The notes beneath the pieces are model-generated. The model was not told the DNA's origin. It was given only the letters and a program-made list of their open reading frames with translations, and did no database searches. This document shows, in pieces, positions 9,325 through 57,190 of a DNA stretch of 64,000 nt. Within the stretch, counting starts at the first letter, position 1. Each line of letters begins with the position of its first letter. Source of the DNA: Cyanidioschyzon merolae. Lineage: Eukaryota. The translations under genes were made by a program, and so were the position numbers. The DNA lies in assembly GCA_000091205.1 (NCBI GenBank), contig AP006500.2; one strand, written 5' to 3'.

Positions 9325-9519
9325 CGCGCGCCACCGCCGTCGACGCCGGCGCGCTTCCGCTGGAGCACTGCGCGTCCGCCGGCTCCTGCACCCGGTGCCG
9401 TGCCCGGGTGTGGACTTGTCGTTTGGGGAGTTGTTGCACGGCGGGTGGGTCGCCACTCCAGCTACGGTTGCGTTTGAACTGTGCTACTTTCTATCTTCAG
9501 ACTGGGCACGTTCATCGCG
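9325..9519 (+). promoter_or_regulatory. Very GC-rich (CpG-island-like) block between the minisatellite and the RPB1 ATG. It is a putative RPB1 core promoter/5' leader.
   Basis: The run 'gcgcgccaccgccgtcgacgccggcgcgcttccgctgg...' is GC-rich (well above flank) and lies immediately 5' of the ATG at 9520. Confidence 0.3.
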
Positions 9520-25418: not shown

Positions 25419-27057
25419 TCAGGGACGGTGGAACACGAATACATACTCGGACGAGATGAGGTCTGCACTGAGGTGTGTGGTGGCGTCTGTGTACCCGGGA
25501 GCATCTGTTACAATCCATGAATCCGCATCGTGCGCAAAGCATGCAGGCGCACCGCAGCCCGCGCTTGACGCGAGATCATCGACGCGATTGAGCGCATTAC
25601 GACGATAGCGTGGATGTCTATCCATCGACGTGCTGATGGCTCCCAGTCTTTTTCGAGCGGCCGCTGGTATCGGTTTCAGCTTCTTCTTGTACACTTTGTT
25701 CCCTAGAGGCTGCTCTACAAAGTTCATTCTCGTCAGCTCCGGGCGCCTCCGCTCCCGCACCGCCTATCTCCTGGTACTTATGGGAGCGTTAAAGTCCCGG
25801 TTCGCAAACTCTATCGCCTTTGATCGTACCCGTAAATAGCTGTTCTTGCTCGTTTTGCGACGTTCGATATCGAAGGTATGCTTCCAGTGACTGTCCTGGT
25901 TTTCGCTGGTGAACTCTATCTTCCTTACATCGAACTCCGTATGGATCTCCCTGATCATCCCGTACAGGGCCCTGGAGTTGATAGCCACAAAGTGCGACTT
26001 GTGGTTGCATATCGTAACGAAATTCAAGCGCATCCCCAGATGCGCAGCCGCCCGTTTGTACGACCCTGCATGCTTCCGCACACCCAGCTCCATCTCCGCC
26101 TTGCGTTCGAGTTCTCGGTTCAGGAGTACGAAATACCGCAGGATGGGGGAATAACATCTTTTCACATCTTTTTTCATCTCTGGTATCTTTTCTGATGGAT
26201 TCGCCAGCGCCAGAACCGCACGGTGCTCTTGAATAGCCGTACGGATTATAGAGGCTTCATTCGCGCTCCTGGGTGACGTCTTCTTGTCGACGAATTCGAC
26301 GTCATCTTTATGCTGGTGAATGTTGGTGATTCCATTGGTAACCGCTCATATTTCCTTGCGAGAGAAGCCCGGGTAGAATGCAAAGATAGAGCGTATCATG
26401 GAACGTTCAAGGTTCATGGTAATCTAGTTCTTCAGATTCGCGAGGTACTTCATTGCCCCGTATTCGGAAATACCCCAGTCACTTCTGTACCGAGTACCCT
26501 TGTACCGGAATTCCGCGTTATTTTCTTGGAGGGTATGCACTCGCTCATTTTCGTCGACGTTTCCCCTGTGTCAAGCACCAGGTGCGGAATGAAGGTCATG
26601 TTGAAAAATTCTTCCGGAACCTCGACAGTTTTGATGTCCGCCACGTTGTCATAGGTGTCCTTCACAAAATGCATCAGTCCTGACGACGCCTTTATAATAC
26701 TCATGGACTGTGTCTCGACACAATTTCCGAAGTACTCTCGCAACTTTTGCTCGTACGGATCCTTGAAATATCCAAGAACAGAGGCTTTCACGACAATCTC
26801 GTCGTACTGTCGTCTTTCTTGCAGGCATTGACGTCGGCCTCCTGCCTCGGCTTCTTCGTCTTTTCCTGTTCGTCTTTGCTCGGGACTGCTTTTCGTTTCT
26901 TTCCGTCAGCCGGCGACACTGCGCCTCGGGGACCTTCCACTTCCTTGTCCATAGATTTCCTTTTCTTACTTTGGTTTGAAAATGAACCGGCTTTGTACGC
27001 TTCTGCTATAAAACAATTAAAAATCATTTGAATAGACTCACTTGAGGGTTGAAACAC
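25419..27057 (-). pseudogene. Fragmented minus-strand ORF series inside an AT-richer island. The four collinear ORFs are 27057-26788, 26791-26450, 26177-25764 and 25760-25419. It is a possible degraded gene or mobile-element ORF, or a gene with small introns or frameshifts.
   Basis: The four ORFs are consecutive and same-strand, with frame changes at the junctions. There are K/R-rich stretches (KKRKSMDKEVE..KKRKAVPSKDEQEKTKKPRQ). Local GC is visibly lower than the flanks. I recognised no homology. Confidence 0.2.
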
Positions 27058-27825
27058 GATTCAGCTGAAAGACTATAACTTGCAACGACTTTAACGCAAA
27101 TACAACTTGTAATTCAGGTGAACAAGTTAACGAATTGTCAGGATCGTGTTTCCCTTCAACGTCGACGTGCGTGTCATCTCTGATGCCTGCCAGATATGGA
27201 GATATGCGTATCGAGCGCATGATCTAGAACAAAGAACAGATACTGACCACTAACTAGCAACGATATAACGATTTCTCTCCCCGTCTACGATAAACGTTAG
27301 AAGAGGGAAAAGCTTTCCGCATTGCCGGAAGTTTATCTCCTGGGCGGAAGGTCCTGCGAGCCGGACGAGTCTGCCGGGCTTGCGCTCCGTGCGCCTCTGC
27401 AGCGACCGATGCTGTAGTGGGATCTGAGCAGATGGTTGGCAACGCAATTTAATCTGGGACAAGGAGCAGGCATGCTACGTCTGGGCGTCGCCCATATTGC
27501 AGTTGTCTCCTAACATATCGGTTCGCGCTGCCGCACACAGTTGGTCTGTCTGCGCAGCTTGCAGGCTCCCCGAGTGTTTATATTCTGCGACTCCGTGTCA
27601 GATGAATGACTCCTCGATCCGACGCCTTTAGTGGTATGACAAAGCTGTTCTGTCTCCGTCATGCATTTGCCCGAGCGGTATGTGCGCTACGGCGGCTGCA
27701 GGAAACCAGACGCTCCGCGCACGATAGAACGCACAAAATGACCATTACATTCGAGAACAGGTGATGAAACTCGGGAGTATGACGCAGCATGATGGACGCT
27801 TTCCCGAAAGCCAGTATCCATCCAT

Positions 27826-27888
27826 CCATCCATCCATCCATCCATCCATCCATCCATCCATCCATCCATCCATCCATCGACAAAGTAA
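27826..27888. repeat. (ATCC)n / (GGAT)n tetranucleotide microsatellite of about 15 units
   Basis: 'tccatccatccatcc...' was read directly. Confidence 0.95.
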
Positions 27889-27936: not shown

Positions 27937-29604
27937 ATGCCCCGTGGCGAGCGGTCAGTCCACCCGTCCTGCTGTCAACGGGGTCCATCACGGACACTGA
28001 CACAAAGTGGACGCGGAACTGCCAGCGGACACGTCATAGCTCGCCAGGGCTGCACCGTTCCTGCTGCCAGATGCGGACACGAGGTCTTCGTGTCCACACA
28101 CTGCACCAGGGTTGTTTCCAAGCGCTGGCTTGTTTACAACAAACGCGGAATGTGGGAGTGCATAGCACCAACAGCCTACGCGGTGGACTGGAACACCGCG
28201 CTTGGTGACGTTCTGCAGACTCCTGAAGAAGTAGAGTTTCTGAGCACACTGGCGTGCTCGCGGGAGCGCTTGCAAGTCGCGCTGCGGCACTGGAAACAGC
28301 TCTCTCTACGGGAGCGTAGTCTATGTGGAACCCGCCAGAAGCACGCGAATAGCGAGGCTCACTTGCCAGCCGCGGAAGAGAAACCTGTCGACGAATCTGC
28401 TAATAAAGCACTCCTTAAAAACTTGAAAGAGACCCTGTTTGCGACCGCTGGGCCGGTCGAGGTGCGGAGCGCCCTCTATCAACTTGAGGCCTATATTCCG
28501 TGCTTGCAGCGCCTGACGAGCTTGTTTCAAGAACAACGTACTGTGGAACATTTTGCGCATAATCGGCACGCGAGCGAAAGCTGCCGTTTCGCGTGGAAGT
28601 CGGGAATGGCGGAACGCCGCACCGTCCAACGGGAATCATTATTGCGTTTCGAGATCCTGTTCACCCTTTTTTATTGGAGCATGGCAAAGATCAGAACCGG
28701 GCATGAAATACTTGATGAGTTTTCATCGAATGCCGAAGGTCAAACTCGCGAGGCCGTCGAGAACGAGGCAGTCCGACTCTTCCGCGAGGCCAGCGGTGTT
28801 CTCAAGTATCTCTCGGAGAAGCTTTCTCCGGGATTGCTGGTGGACATGGATAGCTCCGAATTCGTTTGTGAAGTGCATCCATGTGTAGCATCCGCACTGT
28901 CAAGAATAGCCATGGGCGAAGCTTATTTGCTGGCACTAACGCGTGCCGAGTCCCGACAGCTATCACCGGAAACACTGCTGCGTCTCTCCGTGGGTGTTAC
29001 GGAGACTTTCGCGCTCGCACGCGCTCAACTCCAAGGGCTCTGTGATGGCACTAACAAGGCTGCCGCTGGTCACAAACGACTCGCGTACTCCCCAGAGCCT
29101 GGTTACCGCGCAGTTGCGGAGCTTGGCGAGGCACTCGGACGCACACGTTGCTTCTATTATCAAGCGCTCATCTTTGAAGCGGGTACGAGTCCGCGAGAAA
29201 TTTCAGGCAAGCGCGGGGCAGTTATACGCTTGCTCGAGCACGCATCGCTCGAAATTGAGAAGCGCCGTGTGGGGCGCCTCCTGCGAGACGGCGCGTTTCG
29301 CTTCCTCGTCCCGCCGATGCGTGCGCCCACCGTCCAGCATTGGCAGAACTTAATTAGCATCAAGCTAGAAAAGAGCCGCCGCGACAATGACCTGGTATAC
29401 ATGGAACCTGTTCCGGACTCGATACCAAACATCACAGCAACTGAGGCCCTGTATCCGTTCTATGCTGTTGAGTATTCCTTCACGGACTTGAACCAAACCC
29501 AGCTCGATGCCAGTTCATCTCTAGACGCGTCACTGAATGGTAGCCCCCGCGCCGGTGCCCAGCAGAACGGAACGAACGAGTCGATTGGAGGGACTTTCCG
29601 CTGA
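27937..29604 (+). CDS. BRO1-domain-like protein (BROX/ALIX N-terminal-like). Tentative.
   Basis: The ATG at 27937 was verified. '[16 protein letters not shown]' and '[12 protein letters not shown]' resemble the BRO1 consensus 'FEKACVLFNIGALHSQIA' and 'AAGVFQYLKE'. The protein is alpha-helical and about 550 aa. Confidence 0.4.
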
Positions 29605-31008
29605 AACCAAACGCCAAATAAACACTGTGTTCTGATTCACAACGACAAATGGACGACAAGAACCGCCTCAGCGAAATCCACGCAACCGAGTCAGCATTCA
29701 CGGCACGCTAGAAAAAGTTCGTATCCCGACCTGCATCCCTTGGGTCTGAACGACAACCAATAAAACACGCCATGTATCGCAAGCATGAAACTAGAGCAAT
29801 GCTCCAGCGGGCGCTGCGTATCGCCGCGCACAACGCCTGCGCGTATCCTCGAGCCGACGCACTTTGTGTGGTACGGCAACGCCGTTCTGTCTCCGTGCAG
29901 CGACCTCAGCGGCGCTATAGGCGCTATTGCTGTCGCTTTCGGCAGGCAGTAGGCACACACGATAGGACGTACGAAACCACCAGAATATCCGAGATGAAGT
30001 ATAGGTAATGTAACATGGAGGTAGGTGTAGATCGTTGGATCCTCCACCTCGCACTGGAAAAAACATAAACTAAGAAAAGCAAAATGCGCATAATCGGAGA
30101 ACGCTGGCCTAAGTGAACGTTCTGTCAATGGAAAAAAAGGGAAAAAATGCCTGCGCGTGTTAAACCCGCAGGCACGCATCGCTCACATGATTCATGTTTA
30201 GAATCGATGAGCAGAATGAGGGATTCCACACGCGTGCGATTCTTAGCAACAGGTAGAAAAGCGTCTACTTTCCCGTTTTAGACCGCCTCAAGTTCCACAA
30301 ATTCCAGACGAGACTTGATTACGGGAATTATGGTCCGTTCAAGCGTTCCTCCGGGCATCGAGCATATTGTTAGAAGCGGCTCCGGCGCGAAACGCCCTGA
30401 TGCAGTCGACATACAGAGAGAGACCGGCTCTGGGGTATCTTTGCCGGCGTCAGTGTCAGGCGTTATTCACTGGATTCGGAGCCGAAGACCATTGTTCTTC
30501 TGGGAACCAAAAGGCCGTGTAGACAGACCTGCTTCCAGCAGCGCAAAACGACACGCTATGACAACATAGCGACCAGAGCGACGCCTAGACACAGACCGTC
30601 CATCTCCATCCCGGAAAACCGCGTTGCAGAAGACCTGTCTGGGTCTCGTCACAGCATCCGCCACCGGGGGCACGCGGAGCCATAGCGCTGCAGGCTCGTC
30701 CGGTTCGCGAAACTTTCCATCTACAGGATGAACTTTCGAATATCTGGAAACCGTCCAACCGTACATCGTCTGCGACACGGATGGAAGATAGTATTCGTCA
30801 GTTGCTGGTTACTTCCTCGTTTTTGTTCTATGGGCGCCCGTGCCGCCCATGCAATCCGCGAAACCTATACCTGCGTCAGATTGTAATGGAGCGTTGCACT
30901 GCTCGCTCTGCACCTGGGTTTCGATTTTTTCGGAACTAGATTAGTTGCGTACCCTCGAAATTCGAAGTGCAGTCATGAGAGCATGTGGAGGCTTTTTGGT
31001 TCTTCAAG

Positions 31009-32248
31009 GATTTGCGGTTGTCCTTTCGGAATGAACACCACAACGCTTCCCAGACGGAAGCGGGTCCGTCACCGGAATCAACATGATTCGCGATGCTATC
31101 GAATAAGGCTTCGCAGAGTAGTACACTTCAATTTCCCTGTCATTCGGATGAGCATCCACGCTTCTCCCTTCCCAGCGTCTAGCGGATGCCTCAATCGCGC
31201 ATTCTTCGCGTTCTCGAGCACTCTGTTTCGTAGCAGAGTCGGCGCTCAGCAACGGGCAACATCGTCTACACAGACAAGGCTAACACGATGACGTCGCTTG
31301 ACGGCTTGCTCACGGGCTCGGGTCAGAAAATCACTGACCTCTGGTCATCATACAATCGATTCCGTTCGAAAGCCAAATCAGCCTCTATTTGGAACCGCCA
31401 AAGACATGGCATTCGACGCGAGCACGAGACCCTTCAGGGCATGTATTCCCGAAAGCTCCAGTCTTTTCCGGTTGCACGGAAAAATGTCCTGACCTCGGCC
31501 AGAGGTCATCGCAGCGACCGTCTCCGGTGGAGCGCGTACCAGCGCTTTACACGGCGTCAGCGTTCACCGATGGACATCGCTCAGCTCGCTCGGCGCCCTG
31601 GATGGAGCTCCCGGTGCTCTTCTCATCGTGGACAATATCGCGTTCCACAAATCCTCCATGGAGTGCGACACAGTGCGCCTGCGTGTGCAGCAGACAGCGC
31701 TCCCGCCTAGGGAGTCGCCCAGGCGAAGCAGGTGATCGCGAGGCATAGCGCCAGGTGCGGAAACGTACGAGAGCACCCACTGGCGCCTTCTGTACCCGTC
31801 AAGGCCAGGCACCGAGCGGTGAAGCAAGCGTCCACCCGCCACAGGTTAACGCTGCGAGGTGTAGTGGGTTTCTCGGAACACCTGACCACTGTCAAGGGTC
31901 AACGCGCGGAACGGCGTCCAGCGCCCGCGTCCAAACTAGACAGAGAGAACACCTGAAGCGTGGATCGCAACTTCTGCCCATGAACGAACAGCGTCTGCAA
32001 CGGCCAGACGTGTCGACATCGGGACGCTAACGCTGCCATCAACGTCCGTCGCCCGTTGACAACGGAACTGGGTAGGCAGGATTGACCGGCGTCATTTTAA
32101 AGCCTGAGATGAGAGAGCGGAAAAGGAAGCAGTCCCAGAAAAAGCGCACAGTGGCAGGCAGTTGCATCAGTTCAAAAAGAGGCTCAGACGTTAGTAGGCG
32201 CGCCCGAGTACGCAATGTGTACACGATGCACTCTTTTCTGACGTGGGT
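31009..32248 (+). repeat. Dispersed repeat copy A (about 1.24 kb). It is inverted relative to copies B and C, and truncated at the end that corresponds to B positions ~38560..38695.
   Basis: It is near-identical to 37321..38559 (reverse complement). The shared 140-aa and 119-aa ORF translations are identical or nearly so. Confidence 0.9.
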
Positions 32249-32526
32249 CTAACGCATAAGCAATGCCGGAAACCGTTGATGAAAAAATTGGTATGGGTCC
32301 GATTCTCTGGAACTCGATATGCTGTAAAGGCTTTGTCTCTTCAGGCGAAGGAAGTCAACGGAGGCCGCTTCTCGGCAAATAAGAAAGTACACGTCGTGCA
32401 ATAACGAACGCGCTCTACAATCGGACTAAGGGGCTTCCGTGCTGGCGTTGTCGCGCTTGGTGCTGGTCCGGAACGGTACTGATCGCGGTGGTTCTTCTTG
32501 CTGGACGGAACAGTGCAGGTTCCCGA

Positions 32527-33720
32527 ATGGCAAGTTATGACCCATTTGCTTTGAAAGCAAGCGGTTGTGAGCAGAAAAAACCACCCGCCTGGTTTGAACT
32601 AGGCAAAAGTCTGCTAACGCTCACGTTTGCCGCGGGCGCCGATCAAGAACCCTATAGCCCGGACTCATTTTGGATAAACGCCGGATCCGAAACCTCCAGC
32701 ACACGGGTCAAGCGAAGCAGGCCCGTTGAAGCCGTTTCCACGACTAGCGCTGGCACCTCTGATGACGTTCGGGCGGCTGGACGGAGCGAAACGGATAGGC
32801 AGGTCCCTGTTCAAGAGCCCCGAAACGAGCCGAAAGGTCCCGGCTGCTTCTTCCCGCCGCCAATAGACGACCGAGTTTTGTGTGTTTGCGCTTTTATTGC
32901 TCGGAACTTCACAGGTCCTGATATTGAAATCGAGGCCAAGCTGGGAACAGTTATTGATCTGTCCACCAGAGAACGGGCTGTCCTACCTGGCTGCGCCACT
33001 GCGGCCTGCCTCCAAGCCGAGGTGAACAACGTGCTGCGCTTTGAGTCGAAGGTTTCTTTCGATGCATTCAAGCGACTAAACGAAGTCTTAAACAGGACAG
33101 TGGCATCAGCAGTCCGCCATCGCGGACCATTGGTGCGACATTCGCGTTCACGTCAGACGGATCTGCGCTTCTCGTCAGGCTACAGGGAGACGCGTCCGTG
33201 GAGCCGCAGCGAAGGCGAAGCAGAATCCGGAACGAATGCGACCCAAGGCAACGATAAGACGCCTGCCTCGTTCATGTTCAAGACTCGGTTAGAAACGCTG
33301 CATATTCTCTTCCCAAGTCATCCATATGATGTACGCGTGAACGCTGCCCGCGAACAGCAACTGACTCCTGCCGAAGCGGTGCGACTCGGAGACGCTCGAG
33401 GTGTACTCGAAAGTGAACGACTCAAGGATCGTTTATCCTATCGCTGTGGTGAGCTTTCCATCGATATCACCGTGGTGCACCTTCCCAGAGAGTCGCTCAT
33501 GACGTACGAGGTTGAGGTCGAGCTCATCTTCGACAACCGAGCCGACCAGTGCGCAGAACTTGTACAAGTTTGCACGGACTACCGTCAGCGTCTTGAATCC
33601 GCAGCCCCATTGGCGCCCCCAATGGGTCCTTCACCGCCAGCGTTACTCGTCACCATTGCAGAGACTCTATTCAACACGCTAGTGGCTCTGAATAACGTGC
33701 TGGCAAGCATTACCAACTAG
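32527..33720 (+). CDS. mRNA capping enzyme RNA 5'-triphosphatase, Cet1/TTM (triphosphate tunnel metalloenzyme) type
   Basis: The first ATG is at 32527 (track start 32488 is GTG). The metal-binding glutamate motifs 'PDIEIEAKLG' (motif A, ExExK) and 'TYEVEVELI' (motif C, EVELE) are present at the spacing expected for fungal/protozoal/Chlorella-virus triphosphatases. Confidence 0.6.
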   Translation: MASYDPFALKASGCEQKKPPAWFELGKSLLTLTFAAGADQEPYSPDSFWINAGSETSSTRVKRSRPVEAVSTTSAGTSDDVRAAGRSETDRQVPVQEPRNEPKGPGCFFPPPIDDRVLCVCAFIARNFTGPDIEIEAKLGTVIDLSTRERAVLPGCATAACLQAEVNNVLRFESKVSFDAFKRLNEVLNRTVASAVRHRGPLVRHSRSRQTDLRFSSGYRETRPWSRSEGEAESGTNATQGNDKTPASFMFKTRLETLHILFPSHPYDVRVNAAREQQLTPAEAVRLGDARGVLESERLKDRLSYRCGELSIDITVVHLPRESLMTYEVEVELIFDNRADQCAELVQVCTDYRQRLESAAPLAPPMGPSPPALLVTIAETLFNTLVALNNVLASITN

Positions 33721-33795
33721 TCTCCGTGGACGCTCCTGTAACCAAACCCGAACCCTGTGTCAGACGCGTCGGCACAGCGTCCTCTGGGCCGTCGC

Positions 33796-34431
33796 TCAGA
33801 CGACAAGACGGTATGTAACGTAGCGCCCTGCAGTCTCAGAGTTGCGGGTAATCTTAAGCACTTGCCCTCGTGTCACACCAAAGTAACGCGCGACGGGATC
33901 GCTCTGTAGGATGCGCGGCAGCTGCGTGTCCTTGAGCTGGTACCGTTTAAGGAGGGTCTTCTTCTGCTCCGCCGTCAGAACTTCGTGCTTAGGAACCAGC
34001 TGGTGTCGAGTGATATTCACTAAAAGCTCAGCTTCTTGGAAAAGCTCCAGATGAAAGCGCGGTTGGAGCTCTGCCACCGCCTGTTTCGCAATAGGAGTCA
34101 AGCCCGTCTGCACGACGATGATCGCACGAAGTACGTTCTCTGTCTCCAAGCGAAGGCAGTACTCTCGGATGGGCTTCACACCCACCTTCTCCTCTTTGGG
34201 GAAAAAGACGTATATTTGGTTAGAGCGATCGTTGCGATGCTGCCGCAACATGGTAAGAGACTCTCGCGCACGCCCCGCTGCGTCGAACTTGTGTGCGAAC
34301 TCTTCCAACGGCAGTTCCAAGTCAGTTTTCGTCGGTAAAACGAGGTAACCACGGTCTCGTAGCATTTCTAGAATCGTCCGACGAATCCTATGTAAACGAC
34401 GCGTCTCGTCGGCCTGGATGTCGGTGGCCAT
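33796..34431 (-). CDS. RPB5: DNA-directed RNA polymerases I/II/III subunit RPABC1 (RPB5)
   Basis: The ATG at 34429-34431 was verified. '[23 protein letters not shown]' matches the RPB5 N-terminus. The C-terminal '[69 protein letters not shown]' is the conserved RPB5 assembly domain. Confidence 0.9.
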   Translation of the reverse strand: [211 protein letters not shown]

Positions 34432-35815
34432 TGCGACGAACGCACCGCTGCCAAAACAAGTGCAACGATTACGGCGACAACAGTGTTCACGGTGGTCTCG
34501 CGTAGGCCTTTGCGTCGGCTTTAGCTCGGAGCGATATGTTCGGCAGCGAAAACCACAACACCGTCAACGTTAGCGTCTGTGTAGCGAACGCTTCGCAGTA
34601 GCGCTCCCTCGGAACGCGAACACAGTACAATGCTCATCCAGGCTGATATGCGGTCGCGAACGCCCCCGCGATAGCGCTGCCCAGGAGCAAGGAGCCTTTG
34701 ACGGAACGCCTGCTTGACAAACTGCAGAGCTTCGACTGGTGTCACTTACTAAACGCAACCAGTACAAGCCTGATGAAGGTATGCACGCACCCTGCAGTGG
34801 CTGCAGCTTAAGAGAGTCTTGCTCGTGTTTGCGGACGCTCCGGGCAAAGTAGGCCAGGAAGCAGTGCAGCTATCTGGTGACTACGCTGCAGGCCGATGGA
34901 AACGACCTTTTGGAACACGTAGGTGTTGAAGTCCCTGTCTGGCGCTGTTTCATAACCTGAAAGAGGCAGCCAAGCAGCTCAGGGCCATGTTTGACGTTTT
35001 TCGTGGTTTGGACGCTATTTTGGACAAGTTCTTGAGGGCAGTGCGCGGAGCTGCGACACGCTGGTGTTTCCCAAAGTCGCTCGCATACGGGGACAGACAA
35101 TTTGATGCGTCGGTACACTCGTCATGAAGATGCTCGTCGCCTGGACGGGAGTATTTCGGGAAGGATGCGGATAAATCGAGGCCACGTGCCCCGTTTCGCT
35201 TCGGGAGTACCCGCGAGCCACTGGGCAGCAGCAAAGTACCCGACGCTTACGTAGCGTCGATCGCACGTCCCGCGAGTCGCACTGCTGCAGTAGTGCCGAT
35301 GCGGCAACCAGCAACCTGCAACACTGTGTACTACGGATAGCCGCTCGCTGACGGTGCCTCAGCGATGGACCTGGAAACAGCGGAACGCCGGTCGTGTGCT
35401 GTGGTCTGCCTACTTCACTCGAATGCATTGGGGAGCTGTCGGAGAGCAGGGAAATCGCGGTGTCCGCGAGCAGTGTGCCGCGTTCCATGTAACGATTTCA
35501 CTCGTATGTACACTCGTGAGCGCGTCGACGTTGGGCAATATGCTTCGAATCTGGGCCACGGAAAACAAGAAGCTGGAAAGGTTTCGAAGCAGATCACTTC
35601 GCAACCACGAACTGTCTCTTGTCTGAAACTTGGATGCTTTACGTATTTACGGATCCGCCGAAGCGTTTCCGCAGCTCTTCTGAGTTGCACAGATACGAAA
35701 ACCGTTCCATCAAATCCGCCTAGACAAAGCGCACACTATCTAGTCGCCATATAAAAGTGATACCGAATCCGAAGGATGCTTGTGCAATCACCGTCTCTCA
35801 TTCGTCCGGACCAGC

Positions 35816-37117
35816 TCAATGCCGAGATTTGTATTCCTGGTTGAGATCGTCGACTCCAAACTCAAAAGCAACCTCTGCCTCGGCTTCCGCCAAATCCGCT
35901 GGTGTCATCATCTCGTCTATCATGACGTCAGCCTTTTTCTCCCAACGCAGCGCCCAGCAACGTATTAGCTGCACAAGGAGCCAAGCCAGCAGAACAGATG
36001 CTGTCAACGTAGCGATCACAAACAGTACGATCCCGTAGAGAGGCCACCCGTTGGATTCTCCGAGATCGCATCCATCGTTCGTGCACAACAGCATCTGAAG
36101 CGTCCGGTTCCCGAGCGAATGTATCGCAATACCGGGAGCCAGTGTTGGATAAAGGAGCGCGTCCGCAGGATCCGCTGTTTCCACGAAGAATGCACTGTCG
36201 TTCGCCGCGCAAACAGGCGAACAGGTACGCTTCAGAGAGTAATGATCCGAAACGGATGGCCTCAGAAAATAAATAGACTGTTCCGGCGTGTATTTGCTGG
36301 GGGCATAGAGACTCGGTAACTCGCTCAAAACTGATGTCGATGCAAAGTATAGCTCATCGGAGGTGACGAAACGCGGGACCAAGTCCTGGTGGTGCACAAA
36401 CGCACCCAATGATACCAGCGGCAGGAAGCCGTCATGGCCACGCTCAGGAGATCCGTACAAGAAAATATCAAAGAAGGTCGATGCTTCGTCGTTATTGTCG
36501 TCGACGAGAAAAGCAGGCTGGTTGACGGCGTTCGCACGAATGAGACCTGTGAAGCCCAGCACTATCGCCGCCGCTCGTAGAACAACCGTCGGAAGATCGT
36601 ATTCATCTGGCGGTGGTTTGCCGTCTGTTCCCAGATAGAACCGATTCGCAGAGCGCAGGTACACCCAGCACTGAAGCGAGTCCGAGTTCACTGGCTTGAA
36701 CAGGTACTCCTGCACCGCTTGGGTTGAGGCAAGCTGGTAAGAGCCGCTCGCATAGAACGGTCGAACACCTGCTTGCGTCGATACGAACGACTGGGTCACA
36801 TAAAATAGCTCGGTCTCGCGCGTTGCTTGATCCTTCAGAAATTGAGTTGACTCGTTGATGAAGGAGAAGTTACATGTTACCGTCTGTGCTCGCAGACCTG
36901 GATATTGCTGTGGCCAAATTTGCAGCGAATAGTTTATCGCGTCGTACCGTTGCTTTAGCACCGTCTGATTGGTGACGCCATCTTCGGAGTACACTGAAAA
37001 CTCCCAGAAAGGTCGACTAAGTCCAAGTGCAGTCCACCGCTGGAAGACCAGCAGCGAAACGAGGCCGAGCCGCAGTAGCCAGCGCCAGGAAGCTGCTGAG
37101 CCTGTGGTTGCTGCCAT
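35816..37117 (-). CDS. Hypothetical type I membrane glycoprotein. It has a signal peptide, a large lumenal domain with many NxS/T sequons, a single C-terminal TM helix and an acidic cytosolic tail.
   Basis: The ATG at 37117 gives 'MAATTGSAASWRWLLRLGLVSLLVF' (signal-like). The upstream in-frame part of the track ORF crosses a (CA)n microsatellite ('VRVCVCRC') and the repeat-B boundary, so I excluded it. The C-terminal 'LYGIVLFVIATLTASVLLAWLLV' is a TM helix. Confidence 0.45.
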   Translation of the reverse strand: MAATTGSAASWRWLLRLGLVSLLVFQRWTALGLSRPFWEFSVYSEDGVTNQTVLKQRYDAINYSLQIWPQQYPGLRAQTVTCNFSFINESTQFLKDQATRETELFYVTQSFVSTQAGVRPFYASGSYQLASTQAVQEYLFKPVNSDSLQCWVYLRSANRFYLGTDGKPPPDEYDLPTVVLRAAAIVLGFTGLIRANAVNQPAFLVDDNNDEASTFFDIFLYGSPERGHDGFLPLVSLGAFVHHQDLVPRFVTSDELYFASTSVLSELPSLYAPSKYTPEQSIYFLRPSVSDHYSLKRTCSPVCAANDSAFFVETADPADALLYPTLAPGIAIHSLGNRTLQMLLCTNDGCDLGESNGWPLYGIVLFVIATLTASVLLAWLLVQLIRCWALRWEKKADVMIDEMMTPADLAEAEAEVAFEFGVDDLNQEYKSRH

Positions 37118-37320
37118 GATGGAGCCAGCAGACTGCGGCCTCGTACAAGCTTGTTCTGACGAGTGATCTTCGTCGACAGCGAGTGTGGGTTGTTCTTGTA
37201 CACGAGGACGTAGCAAAGGAGTGCCTGAAATAGCCGGCAAACACCTACACACACACACACGAACGCAGGTAGCACGGTCCAACACAACAGCTCGCCGACG
37301 AGATTTTCGCGATGCCAGTA

Positions 37321-38695
37321 CACCCACGTCAGAAAAGAGTGCATCGTGTACACATTGCGTACTCGGGCGCGCCTACTAACGTCTGAGCCTCTTTTTGAAC
37401 TGATGCAACTGCCTGCCACTGTGCGCTTTTTCTGGGACTGCTTCCTTTTCCGCTCTCTCATCTCAGGCTTTAAAATGACGCCGGTCAATCCTGCCTACCC
37501 AGTTCCGTTGTCAACGGGCGACGGACGTTGATGGCAGCGTTAGCGTCCCGATGTCGACACGTCTGGCCGTTGCAGACGCTGTTCGTTCATGGGCAGAAGT
37601 TGCGATCCACGCTTCAGGTGTTCTCTCTGTCTAGTTTGGACGCGGGCGCTGGACGCCGTTCCGCGCGTTGACCCTTGACAGTGGTCAGGTGTTCCGAGAC
37701 ACCCACTACACCTCGCAGCGTTAACCTGTGGCGGGTGGACGCTTGCTTCACCGCTCGGTGCCTGGCCTTGACGGGTACAGAAGGCGCCAGTGGGTGCTCT
37801 CGTACGTTTCCACACCTGGCGCTATGCCTCGCGATCACCTGCTTCGCCTGGGCGACTCCCTAGGCGGGAGCGCTGTCTGCTGCACACGCAGGCGCACTGT
37901 GTCGCACTCCATGGAGGATTTGTGGAACGCGATATTGTCCACGATGAGAAGAGCACCGGGAGCTCCATCCAGGGCGCCGAGCGAGCTGAGCGATGTCCAT
38001 CGGTGAACGCTGACGCCGTGTAAAGCGCTGGTACGCGCTCCACCGGAGACGGTCGCTGCGATGACCTCTGGCCGAGGTCAGGACATTTTTCCGTGCAACC
38101 GGAAAAGACTGGAGCTTTCGGGAATACATGCCCTGAAGGGTCTCGTGCTCGCGTCGAATGCCATGTCTTTGGCGGTTCCAAATAGAGGCTGATTTGGCTT
38201 TCGAACGGAATCGATTGTATGATGACCAGAGGTCAGTGATTTTCTGACCCGAGCCCGTGAGCGAGCCGTCAAGCGACGTCATCGTGTTAGCCTTGTCTGT
38301 GTAGACGATGTTGCCCGTTGCTGAGCGCCGACTCTGCTACGAAACAGAGTGCTCGAGAACGCGAAGAATGCGCGATTGAGGCATCCGCTAGACGCTGGGA
38401 AGGGAGAAGCGTGGATGCTCATCCGAATGACAGGGAAATTGAAGTGTAATACTCTGCGAAGCCTTATTCGATAGCAACGCGAATCATGTTGATTCCGGTG
38501 ACGGACCCGCTTCCGTCTGGGAAGCGTTGTGGTGTTCATTCCGAAAGGACAACCGCAAATCGTAAAACTGTTTACGAATCCATACATCCTTATTGCTGGA
38601 CTCTGATTATCCAGGCTGCACATCAGAAAAACAGCCTCGGAAGACCCCAATGGCAGAAACTGGGCGAGCAACTCCCTTTTCCTTTCTAGTCTGAC
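37321..38695 (-). repeat. Dispersed repeat copy B, the longest at about 1.38 kb. It is in the same orientation as copy C.
   Basis: Its termini are 'acccacgtcagaaaagagtg...' and '...cccttttcctttctagtctgac'. Compared with copies A and C, the internal ORF translations differ by 0-2 residues. Confidence 0.9.
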
Positions 38696-39931
38696 ACAGG
38701 TGTAGCAGCATGGACAAATTCTCCGATCCAGGAAAGCGCGTTTTCGCCAAGGCACAACCCGCTTTGACACGGCAGGTCTTTCAGGAGCGGGAACGTTCGA
38801 ATGGTAACCGTCTCTCCTCTCTCGCGCTCTGTGGAGAGTGGGGTCTGGATGTGTTCCGCTCAACCGAAAAGGCTCCACTACAATCTCTGTTCGCATTTGC
38901 GCCTCGACAGAATTTACCGGGATTTCATCTCCCAAATTCTTTATCATGGCTTAAGATCGATGTATCTGACATGTATCGCTTGGATGCGCGACTACCGCCA
39001 GTGCCCAATGGAAGAGAATTGCGTTGTTCCACACCAGCAGCGGTTCACGCGTCGCTCCCCGCGGGAAACGAGTGGCGAGCGCAATGACCAGAGCCTGAGG
39101 AGACAGGAGGCTGGAGCTCGCCGCACAGGCAGGTATCGGATATTTCGCTGCGTCGAACGATCCTCGATGAATCGTTTTCCGTGTGCAAAGCGCAAGGGTT
39201 TCTCGGGCGAGTCGGCGCACTGGTGCCGTCCTCAACTCGGCCAGAAAGCGCGCCACTGCCCTGGCATGCACAGCGGAACCAGCAAGCTCCACATTCGACA
39301 AGGTCCATTCGGCAAGTCCCTGCAGATTATTTCAGATGGACCAATACAGTCCGTAACCAGGAAGTTAACCATCATTCCATTACATATTCTTCGACGTTAT
39401 ATCAGATCACGACTTGTCTTTCCCTCCATCATAGATACTTCATGAATCTATCGCCCGTTCGGGTGCCCAGCCTGTGCCAGTCACTTGCTGTGTCGCTGGA
39501 TGCGCCGTCGCCGGGTGCGACGCATGCAGACAGGACACCAACGCGACGCTTTCCTAGCAGTTGGTTCGGAGAGGTCCGACTCTGTGCCGCCGTGCGAAGC
39601 ATTCGCTTCGGGTCTGCAACCCCAAACTTGAACACGACTCTGGGTCCAGCGGGTGTTTCAGAGGACGCTGTCGGTTTATGCCTCGCGCTTCCCTGGTTGC
39701 CGATGGGCATCGCGCAGCCGGGCGAATGCCGCTTCGATGCACTTCCGGGTACACCGCCCCGTACATGCAGTAATCGAAATCGCGCGCGCACAGATGCATG
39801 CGTTTCCCGCCAGAAAGACGCTGCCGTAGGCGGCAATCGCACGGCAGCACGCGCGATCCCCATCCGCTTGTATCCCGAGCGCTTTGAGCGTTCTCTTGGA
39901 CTGTGTTCCTCACTGCGAACGTGTCTCCGGA

Positions 39932-42424
39932 ATGGCCACTGAACTAGCATACCGACTGCCATTTGATAGTCTGAACTTGGGTAGTAACCCTCAGCAAAGC
40001 TTGCGGGCGCTCGGTGGCTCACAACCTTCAGACTCTCGCGGTGGGGCGGGCCGGAGTCGTAGCAGTCCTGCGAACACGTACTCGACGGACGTGGAAGTCC
40101 TCGTCCACTTCTTTCAGACTTTTGTGGATGATCGTGAGGCAAACCCGAGCTTGGGCAGCGACAGTCTGGACAGGGATGCCGACGGGACTCGCCACACGGC
40201 CGCTGGCTCCGAAGCGGCTGAGGAGCCCGCTGCGCTAGGCGAGCGGCAGAACTTGCGAGGCGTCGCGCCAAAGTACCTGCGCCATCTGCAAAAAATTGTC
40301 GACCGCGACTCCAAAATACTTGCTGTTGAGCTGGATGACTTGTTCACGGCTCATGAGGAAACGCTCGCTATGCGCATCCAGCTGAACACCAAGCGGTACA
40401 TTGAAATCTTGTCTCAGGCTGCGGACGCCATTATCGCCACGTTGCGACCGAGTAGGCTGCTGGCTTTGGACACTCTAGACCTATTGATGCAGCAGCGGGA
40501 GCAAAACGAACAGGAGAACCGTCTCGAAGACCAGGAGCTTTTCGGTAATGCCGGTGCTGGTGCTGGTGCAGCAGACGAAGATCCCTACAAGCGCATTCCC
40601 CCGCTTTTGGCGCGGCGCTATCAGGTGCAGCTGGTCCCTGCATCAGAGGACAAACCGTTCCGGATCCGTGATGTGCGAGCTGAGCATGTTGGCCGGCTTG
40701 TGCAAGTCAGTGGCATCGTAACGCGCGTGCTCGATGTGCGCCCACTCGTTCAGGTTGCCATTTATGTCTGCGATGCCTGCGGTACGGAGTATTACCAACC
40801 GATACCGGGACGACAATATATGCCCCTTTTCTTTTGCTCAAAGCAAGAATGCATGCGTTCCGCCACCGGAGGCGGGCGTCTCATTCCCCAGTATCGTGCT
40901 TTCAAATATAGCAAGTTCCAAGAGATTCGCATTCAAGAGCCCGCGCACGATGTTCCCGTTGGTAGCATTCCACGAACGTTAACTGTTCTGTTGCAAGGCG
41001 AACTCTCGAATGCTTGCGCAGCTGGCGACCACATTACGGTGGCCGGTATTTTTTTGCCAACGCTCGTGTCTGGCTTTCGCGCGTTCAAGCAGGGACTCCT
41101 GTCGGACACCTACCTCGAAGCCACTTTCATTCGGCAACAAAAACGGGACTACAAGGATTATCAGCGGGAAATAGCCCGCAATCAGCTCATTCAGGCTCGG
41201 ATTGCTGAACTCGCCAGTACCGCTGGAGTTTATGATCGGCTCGCGCGCTCCATTGCTCCAGAAATCTACGGGCACGAGGATGTCAAAAAAGCGCTCCTTC
41301 TGCAACTGGTAGGCGCACCGACCCGTGAACTTGCTGATGGGATGCGCCTGCGCGGTGATATACACGTATGCCTCATGGGCGATCCCGGTGTCGCCAAGTC
41401 GCAGCTGCTTCGCTACATCTGCAATGTAGCACCGCGAGGCGTCTACACTACGGGCAAGGGCTCGAGTGGTGTGGGCCTCACCGCAGCCGTTCTCCGTGAC
41501 TCCAATACCGGTGATGTGACGTTAGAAGGCGGCGCCCTCGTCATGGCTGACTGCGGCATCGCATGCATCGATGAATTCGACAAAATGGATGAGATTGATC
41601 GCACCTATATCCATGAGGTCATGGAGCAACAGACAGTCTCGATCGCCAAAGCTGGTATTACGACTTCGCTGAATGCACGGGCGGCCGTTCTCGCAGCAGC
41701 GAATCCAGTTCAGGGCCGTTATAATCGACGACGCTCAGCCGCCGAAAATATCAACATGCCAGCAGCACTGCTGTCGCGCTTTGATCTGTTGTTCCTCATG
41801 CTCGATGCACCCGATCAGGACAAGGACCTGGCTCTTGCCCGACATGTGACGTACGTGCACCGGACGGGCGAGGCCCCAGAACTCGGATTCGAACCAGCGT
41901 CACCCGACTTGCTGCGAGCCTACGTTGCGCAGGCTCGACAGTGTGTGCCCGTAGTACCGTCCGAGTTGACGGCCTATGTCGTAGAACACTACGTAGCGCT
42001 ACGCGCTGATGATAAGCAGCGCCGCTGGTTGCCTCGCGGCCACACGACTGCTCGCACGTTGCTGAGCATCCTACGACTTGCACAGGCACTCGCTCGGCTG
42101 CGCTTTTCCAACCTTGTTTCGCGCGAAGATATTGATGAAGCTGTGCGACTGCTCAACTGCTCCAAGGCCTCTCTGGACGATCCGAGCGAGGCAGGTGGCC
42201 ATCGGAACTTGCACGAGCTGGACGCGACAACGCGGATCTATCTACTCATCCGCGACCATGCTGCTGACCGGGGCGAGCGCTCGGTGCCCATTGCGGACAT
42301 CCTCGAGCAGGCCCTGCAGCAAGGTTTCACTAGCCAACAGTTCTACACCGCGCTGAGTGAATACGAAGACATCAATATCTGGTCGGTGGACTCGAACCGT
42401 ACCCGCATTACATTCACGGTGTGA
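39932..42424 (+). CDS. MCM7: DNA replication licensing factor MCM7 (AAA+ MCM helicase subunit)
   Basis: The ATG at 39932 gives 'MATELAYR'; the track start at 39884 is TTG. 'IHVCLMGDPGVAKSQLLRYICNVAPRGVYTTGKGSSGVGLTAAVLRDSNTGDVTLEGGALVMADCGIACIDEFDKMDEIDRTYIHEVMEQQTVSIAKAGITTSLNARAAVLAAANPVQGRYN' is nearly collinear with human MCM7 Walker A, Walker B and arginine-finger regions. 'LPAALLSRFDLLFLMLD' is also present. Confidence 0.92.
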   Translation: MATELAYRLPFDSLNLGSNPQQSLRALGGSQPSDSRGGAGRSRSSPANTYSTDVEVLVHFFQTFVDDREANPSLGSDSLDRDADGTRHTAAGSEAAEEPAALGERQNLRGVAPKYLRHLQKIVDRDSKILAVELDDLFTAHEETLAMRIQLNTKRYIEILSQAADAIIATLRPSRLLALDTLDLLMQQREQNEQENRLEDQELFGNAGAGAGAADEDPYKRIPPLLARRYQVQLVPASEDKPFRIRDVRAEHVGRLVQVSGIVTRVLDVRPLVQVAIYVCDACGTEYYQPIPGRQYMPLFFCSKQECMRSATGGGRLIPQYRAFKYSKFQEIRIQEPAHDVPVGSIPRTLTVLLQGELSNACAAGDHITVAGIFLPTLVSGFRAFKQGLLSDTYLEATFIRQQKRDYKDYQREIARNQLIQARIAELASTAGVYDRLARSIAPEIYGHEDVKKALLLQLVGAPTRELADGMRLRGDIHVCLMGDPGVAKSQLLRYICNVAPRGVYTTGKGSSGVGLTAAVLRDSNTGDVTLEGGALVMADCGIACIDEFDKMDEIDRTYIHEVMEQQTVSIAKAGITTSLNARAAVLAAANPVQGRYNRRRSAAENINMPAALLSRFDLLFLMLDAPDQDKDLALARHVTYVHRTGEAPELGFEPASPDLLRAYVAQARQCVPVVPSELTAYVVEHYVALRADDKQRRWLPRGHTTARTLLSILRLAQALARLRFSNLVSREDIDEAVRLLNCSKASLDDPSEAGGHRNLHELDATTRIYLLIRDHAADRGERSVPIADILEQALQQGFTSQQFYTALSEYEDINIWSVDSNRTRITFTV

Positions 42425-42544
42425 ACGTTCGCCTGCCTAGTCAAGACCAATGCCAGAATAATATGGAACGCGTCCCCCATCTCGGGCGTTCACATGAACG
42501 ACTGGATCTGTTTCTAATGTCGTCAGCACCAGGCTTTGCGGCCA

Positions 42545-43793
42545 TTTCCGCTCTCTCATCTCAGGCTTTAAAATGACGCCGGTCAATCCTGCCTACCCAG
42601 TTCCGTTGTCAACGGGCGACGGACGTTGATGGCAGCGTTAGCGTCCCGATGTCGACACGTCTGGCCGTTGCAGACGCTGTTCGTTCATGGGCAGAAGTTG
42701 CGATCCACGCTTCAGGTGTTCTCTCTGTCTAGTTTGGACGCGGGCGCTGGACGCCGTTCCGCGCGTTGACCCTTGACAGTGGTCAGGTGTTCCGAGACAC
42801 CCACTACACCTCGCAGCGTTAACCTGTGGCGGGTGGACGCTTGCTTCACCGCTCGGTGCCTGGCCTTGACGGGTACAGAAGGCGCCAGTGGGTGCTCTCG
42901 TACGTTTCCGCACCTGGCGCTATGCCTCGCGATCACCTGCTTCGCCTGGGCGACTCCCTAGGCGGGAGCGCTGTCTGCTGCACACGCAGGCGCACTGTGG
43001 CGCACTCCATGGAGGATTTGTGGAACGCGATATTGTCCACGATGAGAAGAGCACCGGGAGCTCCATCCAGGGCGCCGAGCGAGCTGAGCGATGTCCATCG
43101 GTGAACGCTGACGCCGTGTAAAGCGCTGGTACGCGCTCCACCGGAGACGGTCGCTGCGATGACCTCTGGCCGAGGTCAGGACATTTTTCCGTGCAACCGG
43201 AAAAGACTGGAGCTTTCGGGAATACATGCCCTGAAGGGTCTCGTGCTCGCGTCGAATGCCATGTCTTTGGCGGTTCCAAATAGAGGCTGATTTGGCTTTC
43301 GAACGGAATCGATTGTATGATGACCAGAGGTCAGTGATTTTCTGACCCGAGCCCGTGAGCGAGCCGTCAAGCGACGTCATCGTGTTAGCCTTGTCTGTGT
43401 AGACGATGTTGCCCGTTGCTGAGCGCCGACTCTGCTACGAAACAGAGTGCTCGAGAACGCGAAGAATGCGCGATTGAGGCATCCGCTAGACGCTGGGAAG
43501 GGAGAAGCGTGGATGCTCATCCGAATGACAGGGAAATTGAAGTGTAATACTCTGCGAAGCCTTATTCGATAGCAACGCGAATCATGTTGATTCCGGTGAC
43601 GGACCCGCTTCCGTCTGGGAAGCGTTGTGGTGTTCATTCCGTAAGGACAACCGCAAATCGTAAAACTGTTTACGAATCCATACATCCTTATTGCTGGACT
43701 CTGATTATCCAGGCTGCACATCAGAAAAACAGCCTCGGAAGACCCCAATGGCAGAAACTGGGCGAGCAACTCCCTTTTCCTTTCTAGTCTGAC
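42545..43793 (-). repeat. Dispersed repeat copy C (about 1.25 kb). It lacks the first ~125 bp present in B.
   Basis: It is near-identical to 37447..38695. A single coding-frame difference was seen (SATQCAC in A and B versus SAPQCAC here). Confidence 0.9.
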
Positions 43794-43886
43794 GTAGCTT
43801 TCACAAAATCGCATCTCGTTTGACTTTGACGATCCGGATCCGGCTTGGGGCTCCTCGCAGCACCCGTCTGTTCTCCGCTCGAGCGT

Positions 43887-50539: not shown

Positions 50540-50890
50540 CTCTCGTCCATGTGCCGCTGGGCTTACGGATTACAGACGCCGCGATCGACCTCGACAGACT
50601 GTGCATGTGCCGCTGGGCTTACGGATTTCGCGCGTAGCGATCGTCCACTGGAGGCACTGCTGCGATTACGGATTTCGCGCGTAGCGATCGTCCACTGGAG
50701 GCACTGCTGCGATTACGGATTTCGCGCGTAGCGATCGTCCACTGGAGGCACTGCTGCGATTACGGATTTCGCACGTAGCGATCGTCCACTGGAGGCACCG
50801 CTGCGATTACGGATTTCGAGCGTAGCGATCGCCAGCTGGAGGCACCGCTGCGATTACGGATTTCGCGCGTAGCGATCGCCAGCTGGAGGC
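50540..50890. repeat. 47-bp minisatellite of about 7 units ('attacggatttcgcgcgtagcgatcgtccactggaggcactgctgcg'), with a degenerate leading copy
   Basis: The periodicity was verified at 50641, 50688 and 50735. Confidence 0.9.
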
Positions 50891-53906: not shown

Positions 53907-53977
53907 TACGCCGCGCGGGAATCGAACCCGCGTCTAGACGATGGCAACGTCTTAGGATACCACTACCCCAGCGGCGT
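53907..53977 (-). tRNA. tRNA-Gly (anticodon GCC), with no encoded CCA
   Basis: The minus strand reads 'ACGCCGC TG GGGTAGTGGTATCC TA AGACG TTGCCAT CGTCT AGAC GCGGG TTCGATT CCCGC GCGGCGT A'. The 7-bp acceptor stem, the 5-bp anticodon stem (U33, GCC, A37) and the T-arm 'GCGGG TTCGATT CCCGC' are all perfect. Confidence 0.8.
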
Positions 53978-55949: not shown

Positions 55950-57190
55950 ACCTGTTTGACTTCGTGTGTAGCGCAGCATGCTCCTGTGCGCGAGCCGTAA
56001 CCACAGCGCCAAGCGTAGCGCATTCGCCGTCTCAGCGCCGGGGTCCAGGGACGCTCGTCGATTGCTCACGGTATTTAGGCGATGCATCGAACTTGAACGT
56101 CCGTGTGCGCGATGCTAAAGGCAACAAAGCGCATGAACGCTTTTTTCGCCGAGACTTGAGCGCCTCGATGAATATCCGGAAAAGCCTCGTGATTCTGGAG
56201 CGTGCATCAGGTTTACAAAGAGCGAACTTTCGACGGAATCGTTTCGCTTTCAGCGTGCACATAGTGCTGAATGCGCAAGACTTACGGTGGAAACAATGCC
56301 GCGCACGCGGGGGCGAGAGACACAGAGAAAGCCCGAATTCTGGCAAGCTGCAAGACACTGGTGTGGAGCGGTTCAGGAATCCAGAAAAACCTGGAACGCT
56401 GCATGTATAGAATGCGAATGGTTTTCCGGCGCTGTCGACGAACGACCATGAGACCATGATTTTCCACGAGCCGCATGTATGGATTTTCTCGCAGAGAGCA
56501 CTATCCCAGGGCCAGAGCGACAATAGAAGAGGTCCTCGGAAACGGGTGCACATTCCAAAGATTCCGTCCCTGCACGCTGTCATCAACGAAACCAGCCTCT
56601 GTGGGCTATTTCTGCGACTGGTTCCTTTTTTTCCCGCTCGTATCCCCAGCTTGAGCCAGCTAGGTAACTTGTGCTTCTCCAGCTCGACTGTCAGCAGTCA
56701 CAGTATGTGGACTGAAGCACCAGAATTCCAATTTCGCTGGTTGCTTGTGTCTTCTGCGCGTTTCACGCACAGGCCGTACTTTCGAGCCGCACCTCGCTGC
56801 CAATGTTCATCTTCTTTTCATATAACATCGGAGCGTCTTGTGCAGCGATAACACTTTCATGCGGTCGGGATGTTTCCCTATGTCCACCAGAACGAAGCGT
56901 TCTCCGAGCGCCACCCCGAAGCGCTCGAAAGCTTGCTTTATCGCTCGCGACCTGCCCGGGACCGATAGCGGTGGCCCGTGTCGATGCCCGCGCCGCCTCG
57001 GAGTCCCGCGCACGGCACCCAGAGGAACATTGCATCCCTCGGATGTCCCTTTTGTACATGATCAAACGATCGCCAGCAGCGCTCGCGATATGCTGTCCAT
57101 TTATTCCGCTCATATCCAGATATGTACTTTGGAGATCGAGTGCCACATCGCTTCACACTGCGGCAGTATGAGCGCGTCGGCGTCGTCGCC

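Follow-up and report, generated by a model that had tools for sequence, protein, structure and literature searches.

The window analysed here is a stretch of 64,000 nucleotides of the Cyanidioschyzon merolae genome (assembly GCA_000091205.1, contig AP006500.2). It carries three near-identical copies, designated A, B and C, of an element of about 1.38 kb, located in three adjacent intergenic spacers around the genes for an RNA triphosphatase, RPB5 and MCM7. The window RPB5 protein is BAM82463.1 of C. merolae strain 10D, and the MCM7 protein is identical to BAM82465.1 of the same strain. These three gene names had been assigned from the sequence alone in an initial annotation, and Pfam marks for mRNA_triPase, RPB5 and MCM7 on the called genes agree with them. 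The features of the locus are as follows.

30866..32250, + strand: copy A, full-length; 31009-32251 is the tract >99% identical to B, and 30866-31008 is the copy's own diverged 5′ end
32252..37318, genes on both strands: block X, with a Cet1-type RNA triphosphatase gene (32527-33720, +), RPB5 (33796-34431, -) and a gene for a 503-aa protein (35816-37327, -)
37319..38707, - strand: copy B, full-length; profile match at 37323-38707, E=6e-182
38708..42445, + strand: block Y, which lies between the direct repeats B and C and holds MCM7 (39932-42424) together with 1.2 kb upstream of it
42446..43803, - strand: copy C, full-length, between the MCM7 stop codon and the gene for a 287-aa protein; 42542-43793 is the tract >99% identical to B, and 42446-42541 is the copy's own diverged 3′ end

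Three near-identical copies at the MCM7 locus

By self-BLAST and a repeat finder, A (31009-32251, +) is 99.5% identical to B (38561-37319) over 1243 nt, B (37444-38695) is 99.7% identical to C (42542-43793) over 1252 nt, and A and C share 99.4% identity over 1118 nt, all three alignments being gapless. A and B are inverted repeats with 5067 nt between them, and B and C are direct repeats that lie ∼3.85 kb apart and enclose MCM7. The number, positions and orientations of the copies are thus as described in the initial annotation. No other match at this level of identity was found within the 64 kb, where the remaining self-BLAST matches are tandem arrays.

The locus is present in many hot-spring metagenomes at ∼99.6% identity. 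The neighbouring genes on the matching contigs, from gene calls and Pfam, are BRO1, mRNA triphosphatase, RPB5, the 503-aa protein, which belongs to no family, MCM7, the 287-aa protein and alcohol dehydrogenase (ADH). Most of these contigs end within the repeats, as expected for short reads. However, four independent contigs (L001, L004, L017 and L040) carry the same copies in the same flanks, and an assembly artefact of this record, which had been considered initially, can therefore be set aside: the copies are real. Queries internal to the element, namely the exact 140-aa open reading frame (ORF), its variant and a central 20-mer, retrieved seven contigs that include flanking sequence, and all seven map to this single locus. 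Were there at least three additional near-identical copies in the genome, this result would be obtained with a probability of <1%. The >99% identical form is therefore local, and it is the diverged family described below that is dispersed.

Several simple repeats were also recorded. A (GT)n run lies at ∼37245-37262, about 60 nt beyond the 3′ end of copy B and within the first part of the listed 503-aa ORF. A 4-nt microsatellite at 27816-27878 is longer in contigs L001 and L014, and its length is hence polymorphic among strains. The tandem arrays are found at 8478-9328 (∼65-nt unit, ∼13 repeats), at 14407-14934 (27/45-nt units within an 1832-aa ORF at 9481-14979) and at 50545-50890 (∼47-56-nt unit). 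A tRNA-Gly(GCC) gene at 53907-53977 (-) is the sole Rfam or ARAGORN match in the window.

A diverged family with a probably homogenised tract

A DNA profile search with nhmmer finds five matches in the window, of which four (A, B, C and a further copy, D) are full-length and one (F) is a fragment. D and F are too diverged for BLASTN and were detected by the profile alone.

4948-6333, - strand: copy D, full-length, E=8e-167; 47-58% identical to B in a global alignment
56528-56992, - strand: copy F, partial, covering the 3′ third of the model (∼positions 901-1363); E=4e-38, or E=2e-38 with a profile lacking A, B and C

When the profile is built without A, B or C, copy A is recovered at full length as 30865-32245 (E=3e-176) and copy C as 42450-43803 (E=3e-177). 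The isolated 5′ end of A (E=9e-14) and the isolated 3′ end of C (E=5e-8) each match the family in the same way. Since their own ends match a profile to which none of the three copies contributed, A and C are full-length. They had previously been described as truncated at opposite ends, but the ends are present and have diverged, being 52% and 45% identical to B, respectively. A, B and C are full-length members of an old, highly diverged dispersed family, the members of which are 1352-1393 nt long and ∼50-65% alike. The three copies do not stand alone, as diverged members occur in the window and in related genomes and terminal inverted repeats (TIRs) are present (see below). The profile matches and the termini therefore bear out a dispersed repeat family with imperfect TIRs, as first proposed.

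Relatives outside the window were found through the 140-aa ORF. An exhaustive protein search with it gave 17 weak protein clusters. These consist of ORF calls on DNA homologous to the element; every one is metagenomic, and none comes from an annotated genome. The 222-aa ORF of the element retrieves its own cluster alone. Three homologues (on contigs L041, L044 and L046) align over the whole element, with a local DNA identity of ∼65-78% and similar scores in all six frames. Exact 20-mers of the element have no match in viral contigs, distant BLAST of the element gave no match in plasmids, and a search of viral contigs with the protein alignment of the family gave no relatives.

In a related genome, represented by ten samples of one locus (contigs L046-L055), one full-length member lies between an E2F/DP-like gene and a gene for a SAP-domain protein. 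In L044, further repeat modules directly follow the homologue of the element, for ∼2.5 kb in total. Used as a query, this flank of L044 matches two further repeat modules in the window, at 26817-27579 (+; E=2e-86) and 30495-30830 (-; E=5e-20), and at 7950-8535 (+; E=9e-35) and 25610-25812 (+; E=2e-14); one of the two adjoins the 5′ end of copy A. These modules may belong to CMe-1A/TE-N2_CMe, a C. merolae family considered in the last section. Some copies of the element have other repeat modules beside them.

The near-identity of A, B and C is confined to part of the element. A is 52% identical to B over positions 1-134 and 99.2-100% identical thereafter, and C is 99.3-100% identical to B as far as position 1252 but 45% identical over the last ∼125 nt. 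D, by comparison, is 47-58% identical to B throughout. The switches in identity are abrupt and occur in register, as would be expected where a neighbour overwrites part of a diverged paralogue, and the near-identity is best read as an ectopic gene-conversion tract. Gene conversion had been offered initially as an alternative to very recent spread, and the sharp, in-register drops in identity make it the better reading of the two. Only B has both the 5′ end that is common with C and the 3′ end that is common with A; it is thus the simplest donor and probably the source of the homogenised tract. The two internal boundaries of the tract fall in blocks of above-average conservation in the family (93rd and 89th percentile).

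Within the tract, private differences in strain 10D number 4 in A, 1 in B and 2 in C. The copies differ from each other by 0.3-0.6%, which is about the divergence of natural strains at neutral sites. Several of the sites at which the 10D copies differ vary among copies in the metagenome contigs as well. This agrees with continuing exchange among the copies, although the collapse of repeats during assembly could mimic it.

A recent burst of an active non-autonomous element, with three fresh insertions of one master and truncation of A and C on insertion, would also produce copies that are >99% identical. The TIR-like ends and TA flanks, and the lack of elements at the outgroup loci examined below, are in keeping with such an event. 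However, A and C are full-length, and their ends are 45-52% identical to B and in register with the family model, which does not fit the spread of a young element. In addition, the seven flank-bearing contigs all belong to this locus, near-identical copies were seen nowhere else, and neither an intact ORF nor a source of transposase was identified. A recent burst is accordingly considered very unlikely.

A plain segmental duplication that arose during an inversion, by a staggered break or a template switch and with no transposon involved, is less probable still. Staggered breaks are known to leave inverted duplications where an inversion has its breakpoints, and each identity boundary is found in just one pair of copies. 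Against this, the sequence just beyond each boundary is still homologous to the family and in register, independent members exist elsewhere in the window and in other genomes, and the third, direct copy C is left unexplained. A staggered-break origin of the A/B duplication was rejected on account of the in-register diverged ends.

Some points weigh against conversion. On one side, each tract extends as far as the terminus of the element itself, where there is no homology to anchor a classical conversion event; the 3′ terminus of the family is poorly conserved; and conversion between partners that are elsewhere ∼50% identical is mechanistically hard. The use of conserved TIRs as anchors at the tract ends was considered but is unsupported for the poorly conserved 3′ terminus.

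Termini and the ruined reading frame

Copy B begins with CACCTGTGTCAGA and ends with TCTGACGTGGGTG, with a TA immediately outside each end. The terminal sequence TACACCTGTGTCAGA pairs with TACACCCACGTCAGA (the reverse complement of the 3′ end) at 12 of 15 positions. The corresponding match is 11/15 in A, and D has a gapped match over ∼23 nt. The imperfect TIR suspected in the initial annotation is therefore present, and it is longer than was stated there. TA is found on both flanks of A, B and D but could be the element's own sequence, and no target-site duplication longer than TA is seen, however the flanks are paired. No allele with an empty site was found, and the outgroup spacers are too diverged for alignment.

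None of the copies encodes a protein today, as had been noted from the outset, and their coding capacity is lost. Frame f2 of copy B has 7 premature stops. Changes at the 42 sites that vary over all copies are synonymous, in each candidate frame, as often as expected under neutrality (e.g. 5/16 versus 0.24). The density of single nucleotide polymorphisms (SNPs) in the element is 0.7-0.9% per nt, which equals or exceeds that of other spacers; SNP densities in coding regions are biased downward, as the loci were retrieved by exact protein match. Pfam searches with the ORFs of the element and with three-frame translations gave no family, or noise.

A former gene can nevertheless be traced in the consensus. 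In a majority consensus of five diverged members, frame f2 contains 6 stops and the other two frames contain 16-18, and this depletion of stops points to an ancestral ORF of ∼410 codons. Substitutions among the diverged members show no three-periodicity; since copies decay neutrally once inserted, this is still compatible with a former gene. The C-terminal part of the f2 consensus reads KPVIVGYGTGRGNGGGH ... VKGMYRALKQAF.RHR ... VVD..EHLTT.KC ... C..C ... NRD.NAAINI. Remnants of the same motif are seen near the end of the ruined f2 ORF of B (HLTTVKG...CNGQTCRHRDANAAINV) and in the homologues on L046 (CMKC...NRDLNATINI) and L041 (CMEC...HRDMNAATNS). The motif that defines TnpB and Fanzor proteins at the C-terminus is [TS][TS]-x-x-C4 zinc finger-x(5,50)-RD (Bao & Jurka 2013, PMC3627910). 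It is complete in P0118 (TTKKCYKC...CESCHSC...NRDFNAAINI), which also has a G located 36 residues ahead of the conserved E, as in the published motif. P0118 and P0119 are better preserved relatives from other metagenomes, and in both this region has a normal protein composition. P0119 is a C-terminal fragment at 4001-4561 of contig L056 (ENA ERZ27265933, GC 45%), which belongs to another organism or mobile element; the gene adjoining it bears weak Prim-Pol and Gad2 marks.

Further upstream, the f2 consensus has RDGIRHQ ∼165 residues ahead of the [TS][TS] pair, a position within the 125-275 residues expected for the RuvC-I aspartate, and the D of this motif is a candidate for that residue. GIR is conserved across the 17 ORF clusters, but in B the D is replaced (RHGIR). 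Three libraries each give the C-terminal region of TnpB or Cas12f as the best match, at the right position in the model. PF07282 is the top match in three sequences (E=0.0018, 0.0059 and 0.031; 14.9-18.8 bits against a cut-off of 26.3), NCBIfam Cas12f2 (NF049972) is matched at E=0.01 and PHROG 506 ('transposase') at E=0.035-0.047, the latter two also below threshold. The ruined ORF is most likely of the TnpB/Fanzor type. The initial statement that the element has no transposase-like signature no longer holds, as frame f2 of the consensus is depleted of stops and ends in a TnpB/Fanzor-like zinc ribbon followed by RD-NAA-NI.

Several results tell against this assignment. All of the database matches to TnpB or Fanzor fall below the family threshold (best 18.8 versus 26.3 bits). 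The L046 fragment, a five-member C-terminal profile, the consensus and P0118 were each searched against PDB sequences, with no relevant match. An hhalign comparison with ISDra2 TnpB was not significant, as it gave a probability of 0.1% and aligned only TKKCYKCH with SQLCHDCG. The AlphaFold model of P0118, from an alignment of four sequences, is unreliable (mean predicted local distance difference test score 55). Finally, frame f0 of the consensus has a sub-threshold match to PF13358 DDE_3 (E=1.4e-4, profile positions 7-102, ∼540-816 of the element).

The last of these raises the alternative that the relic derives from a DDE transposon of the Tc1/mariner/IS630 type and not from a Fanzor/TnpB element, which would leave the account of conversion and inversion unchanged. 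TIRs together with TA flanks are typical of that superfamily, and DN..HKS and LPP.SP motifs with Tc1-like spacing can be picked out by eye. However, the PF13358 match scores 22.2 bits against a threshold of 28.6. The central region has 1-4 stops in f0 in every diverged member versus 0-2 in f2, the whole consensus has 16 stops in f0 versus 6 in f2, and in B, D and L046 a stop occupies the codon expected for the catalytic E. Frame f2 is also that of the best-preserved relatives, P0118 and P0119. Moreover, TIRs and TA duplications have a precedent in Fanzor1-only elements (SPu-1, PMC3627910). A DDE origin is thus regarded as unlikely, though it is a stronger contender than a recent burst.

The initial annotation had also allowed for a multicopy gene for a structured non-coding RNA (ncRNA). 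The lack of an intact ORF and the conserved length (1352-1393 nt) of members that are ∼55% identical would suit such a gene. However, the element has no Rfam match, either at the gathering threshold or at E≤5, and RNAalifold on the 3′ terminal ∼130 nt of seven diverged members, the sole part examined, gave only -1.1 kcal/mol and two 3-bp helices, i.e. no conserved structure. A guide (omega) RNA of the TnpB/Fanzor type would also lie at this end; the alignment is small and made up of dead copies. A SNP density that is no lower than in other spacers also argues against an ncRNA gene, as does the strong depletion of stops in the consensus frame, which points to a former protein gene. Of the explanations weighed here, this one is judged the least probable.

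Gene order at the locus and comparison with known systems

The corresponding loci of Cyanidiococcus yangmingshanensis (L010) and of a second related genome (L011-L013) were used as outgroups. Both have the order BRO1(+), 448-aa gene(+), RPB5(+), triphosphatase(-), MCM7(+), 290-aa gene(+), ADH(-). Positions 32864-37012 of the window align in reverse to L010 and L011, whereas BRO1, MCM7, the 287-aa gene and ADH align forward. C. merolae thus has the A-B block in the opposite orientation to both outgroups. Recombination between A and B had been predicted to cause such an inversion, and the reversed A-B interval indicates that the inversion occurred in evolution. No relative of the element was found in the 20-kb outgroup loci L010-L013 by BLASTN, TBLASTX or profile search, and the outgroup spacers are too short to hold one (MCM7 is followed by the next gene after ∼95 nt in L011, versus 1462 nt here). 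A literature search for structural variation or inversions in C. merolae gave nothing relevant.

The segment that is inverted against the ancestral order is bracketed by inverted repeats of 1243 nt at 99.5% identity, suggesting that the A and B repeats caused the inversion. Against this, the breakpoints can be placed only within 29421-32864 and 37012-40561, intervals of ∼3.4 kb that contain A and B, and the repeats are hence a putative cause of the inversion.

On balance, the locus is probably best explained by dead transposon relics that were homogenised by conversion and came to flank an inverted block. A, B and C would be three dead relics of an old DNA-transposon family of ∼1.38 kb, characterised by imperfect TIRs, TA flanks and one ruined ORF of ∼410 codons, and they lie in adjacent spacers at which sister genomes have no element. 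Ectopic recombination among these neighbours would then have overwritten a tract of 1.1-1.25 kb, bringing the difference to ≤0.6%, while A kept its own diverged sequence over its first ∼134 nt and C over its last ∼125 nt. The resulting long identical repeats would be substrates for non-allelic homologous recombination (NAHR), and recombination between A and B would have flipped the intervening block relative to the ancestral gene order.

Junctions between the copies and their flanks were scored on metagenome contigs that span a repeat and reach unique sequence at either end, all from short-read assemblies (a5 and a3 denote the 5′ and 3′ flanks of A, and so on).

a5-a3, reference junction: L001, L004, L040
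b5-b3, reference junction: L001, L017
a5-b3, non-reference (A×B flip, ancestral order): L003
a3-c5, non-reference (A×C flip): L002
c3-a5, non-reference (reciprocal A×C junction): L014, L037, from two unrelated projects

In L016, which likewise has a non-reference junction, a complete 5′ end is joined to the a3 flank, and none of the repeat-crossing contigs carries a c3-c5 junction. The non-reference junctions fit homologous exchange between the copies. However, short-read contigs that cross a near-identical repeat of 1.1-1.4 kb can be chimeras, and it is a tentative suggestion, somewhat short of an even chance, that at least one of the alternative orders is real.

The gene order of L002, L014 and L037 also provides the start of a different path to the present arrangement. 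With two full, identical copies and one old copy in that order, the old copy would have been converted only internally (positions 135-1252), and a crossover between A and C would then have generated the 10D order. Because the old copy is converted only internally, this path avoids the problem of tracts that reach the end of the element, but it requires a larger number of rearrangements relative to the outgroups.

The region may still flip in natural populations, by A×B or A×C exchange, whereas a B×C deletion would lose MCM7 and should be lethal. The stronger proposal, that 31-44 kb is a live recombinational switch in which conversion keeps the relics identical and wild populations carry interconvertible orders (reference, A×B flip and A×C flip) around the three essential genes for MCM7, RPB5 and the capping triphosphatase, is doubtful. 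On that view, a Fanzor nuclease that is still active and encoded at another place in the genome might even supply the double-strand breaks that initiate exchange.

C. merolae, whose genome is '100% complete', serves as a minimal model eukaryote and is valued for its efficient homologous recombination. The locus suggests that even here old, very diverged transposon relics can be re-homogenised over >1 kb, that such relics, once homogenised, can drive the rearrangement of blocks of essential genes, and that the genome holds a short, TIR-bounded and probably Fanzor-derived family that is detectable by profile searches alone. With three repeats and four possible gene orders, it is a compact natural test case for the rates of ectopic conversion and inversion in a red alga. 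All of this is repeat biology of an ordinary kind, set in a very tidy genome, and introduces no new principle, but it is relevant to annotators of C. merolae and to students of its recombination.

In layout, the nearest match to the family is the group of Fanzor1-only elements that have TIRs and TA duplications, exemplified by the DNA transposon SPu-1 of Spizellomyces punctatus (PMC3627910). As in SPu-1, a single ORF fills the element, there are TIRs and a TA at both flanks, and the C-terminus has the [TS][TS]-x-x-C4 zinc finger-x(5,50)-RD motif with the conserved G and E upstream. The family differs in its size (1.38 kb and ∼410 codons, versus ∼2.1 kb and 633 aa in SPu-1) and in its TIRs, which are imperfect and ∼15-25 nt long where those of SPu-1 are 33 bp. 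In addition, all family copies seen here are dead, and no database model is matched at threshold.

C. merolae is already known to hold an old Fanzor1 family, CMe-1A, with ∼150 copies of ∼3 kb that lack TIRs, are ∼80% identical to their consensus and include some intact ORFs; one Fanzor1 is also listed for white spot syndrome virus (PMC3627910). A '253-copy novel interspersed repetitive element' with a WSV486-like ORF has been described in C. merolae (Nozaki 2007, PMC1955436), and CMe-1A/TE-N2_CMe is probably this element. Like CMe-1A, the present family is old, highly diverged and interspersed in intergenic DNA of the same genome, with an ORF that is probably of the Fanzor type. Compared with CMe-1A by its published description alone, the family is distinguished by its length of 1.38 kb, its TIR-like ends and members that are only ∼50-65% alike, and the annotated C. 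merolae proteome contains no source for any of its ORF clusters that were checked.

The family also resembles the TnpB-only insertion sequences (IS1341 group, IS200/IS605), which are ∼1.2-1.5 kb long, consist almost entirely of a tnpB gene of ∼400 codons and end in a zinc ribbon and the RuvC-III motif RD-NAA-NI. However, those elements are prokaryotic, lack TIRs and leave no target duplications, and the hhalign comparison with ISDra2 TnpB was not significant.

Inversions between inverted segmental duplications recur in humans, and Ty-mediated rearrangements occur in yeast. The arrangement at this locus is like that in NAHR between low-copy repeats, as inverted repeats that are >1 kb long and >99% identical bracket an inverted segment and a direct pair brackets its neighbour. 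It is unlike the usual cases in that the repeats are old, diverged transposon relics that would have been homogenised first, and in that the direct pair B/C encloses the essential gene MCM7, such that deletion products would be expected to be lethal.

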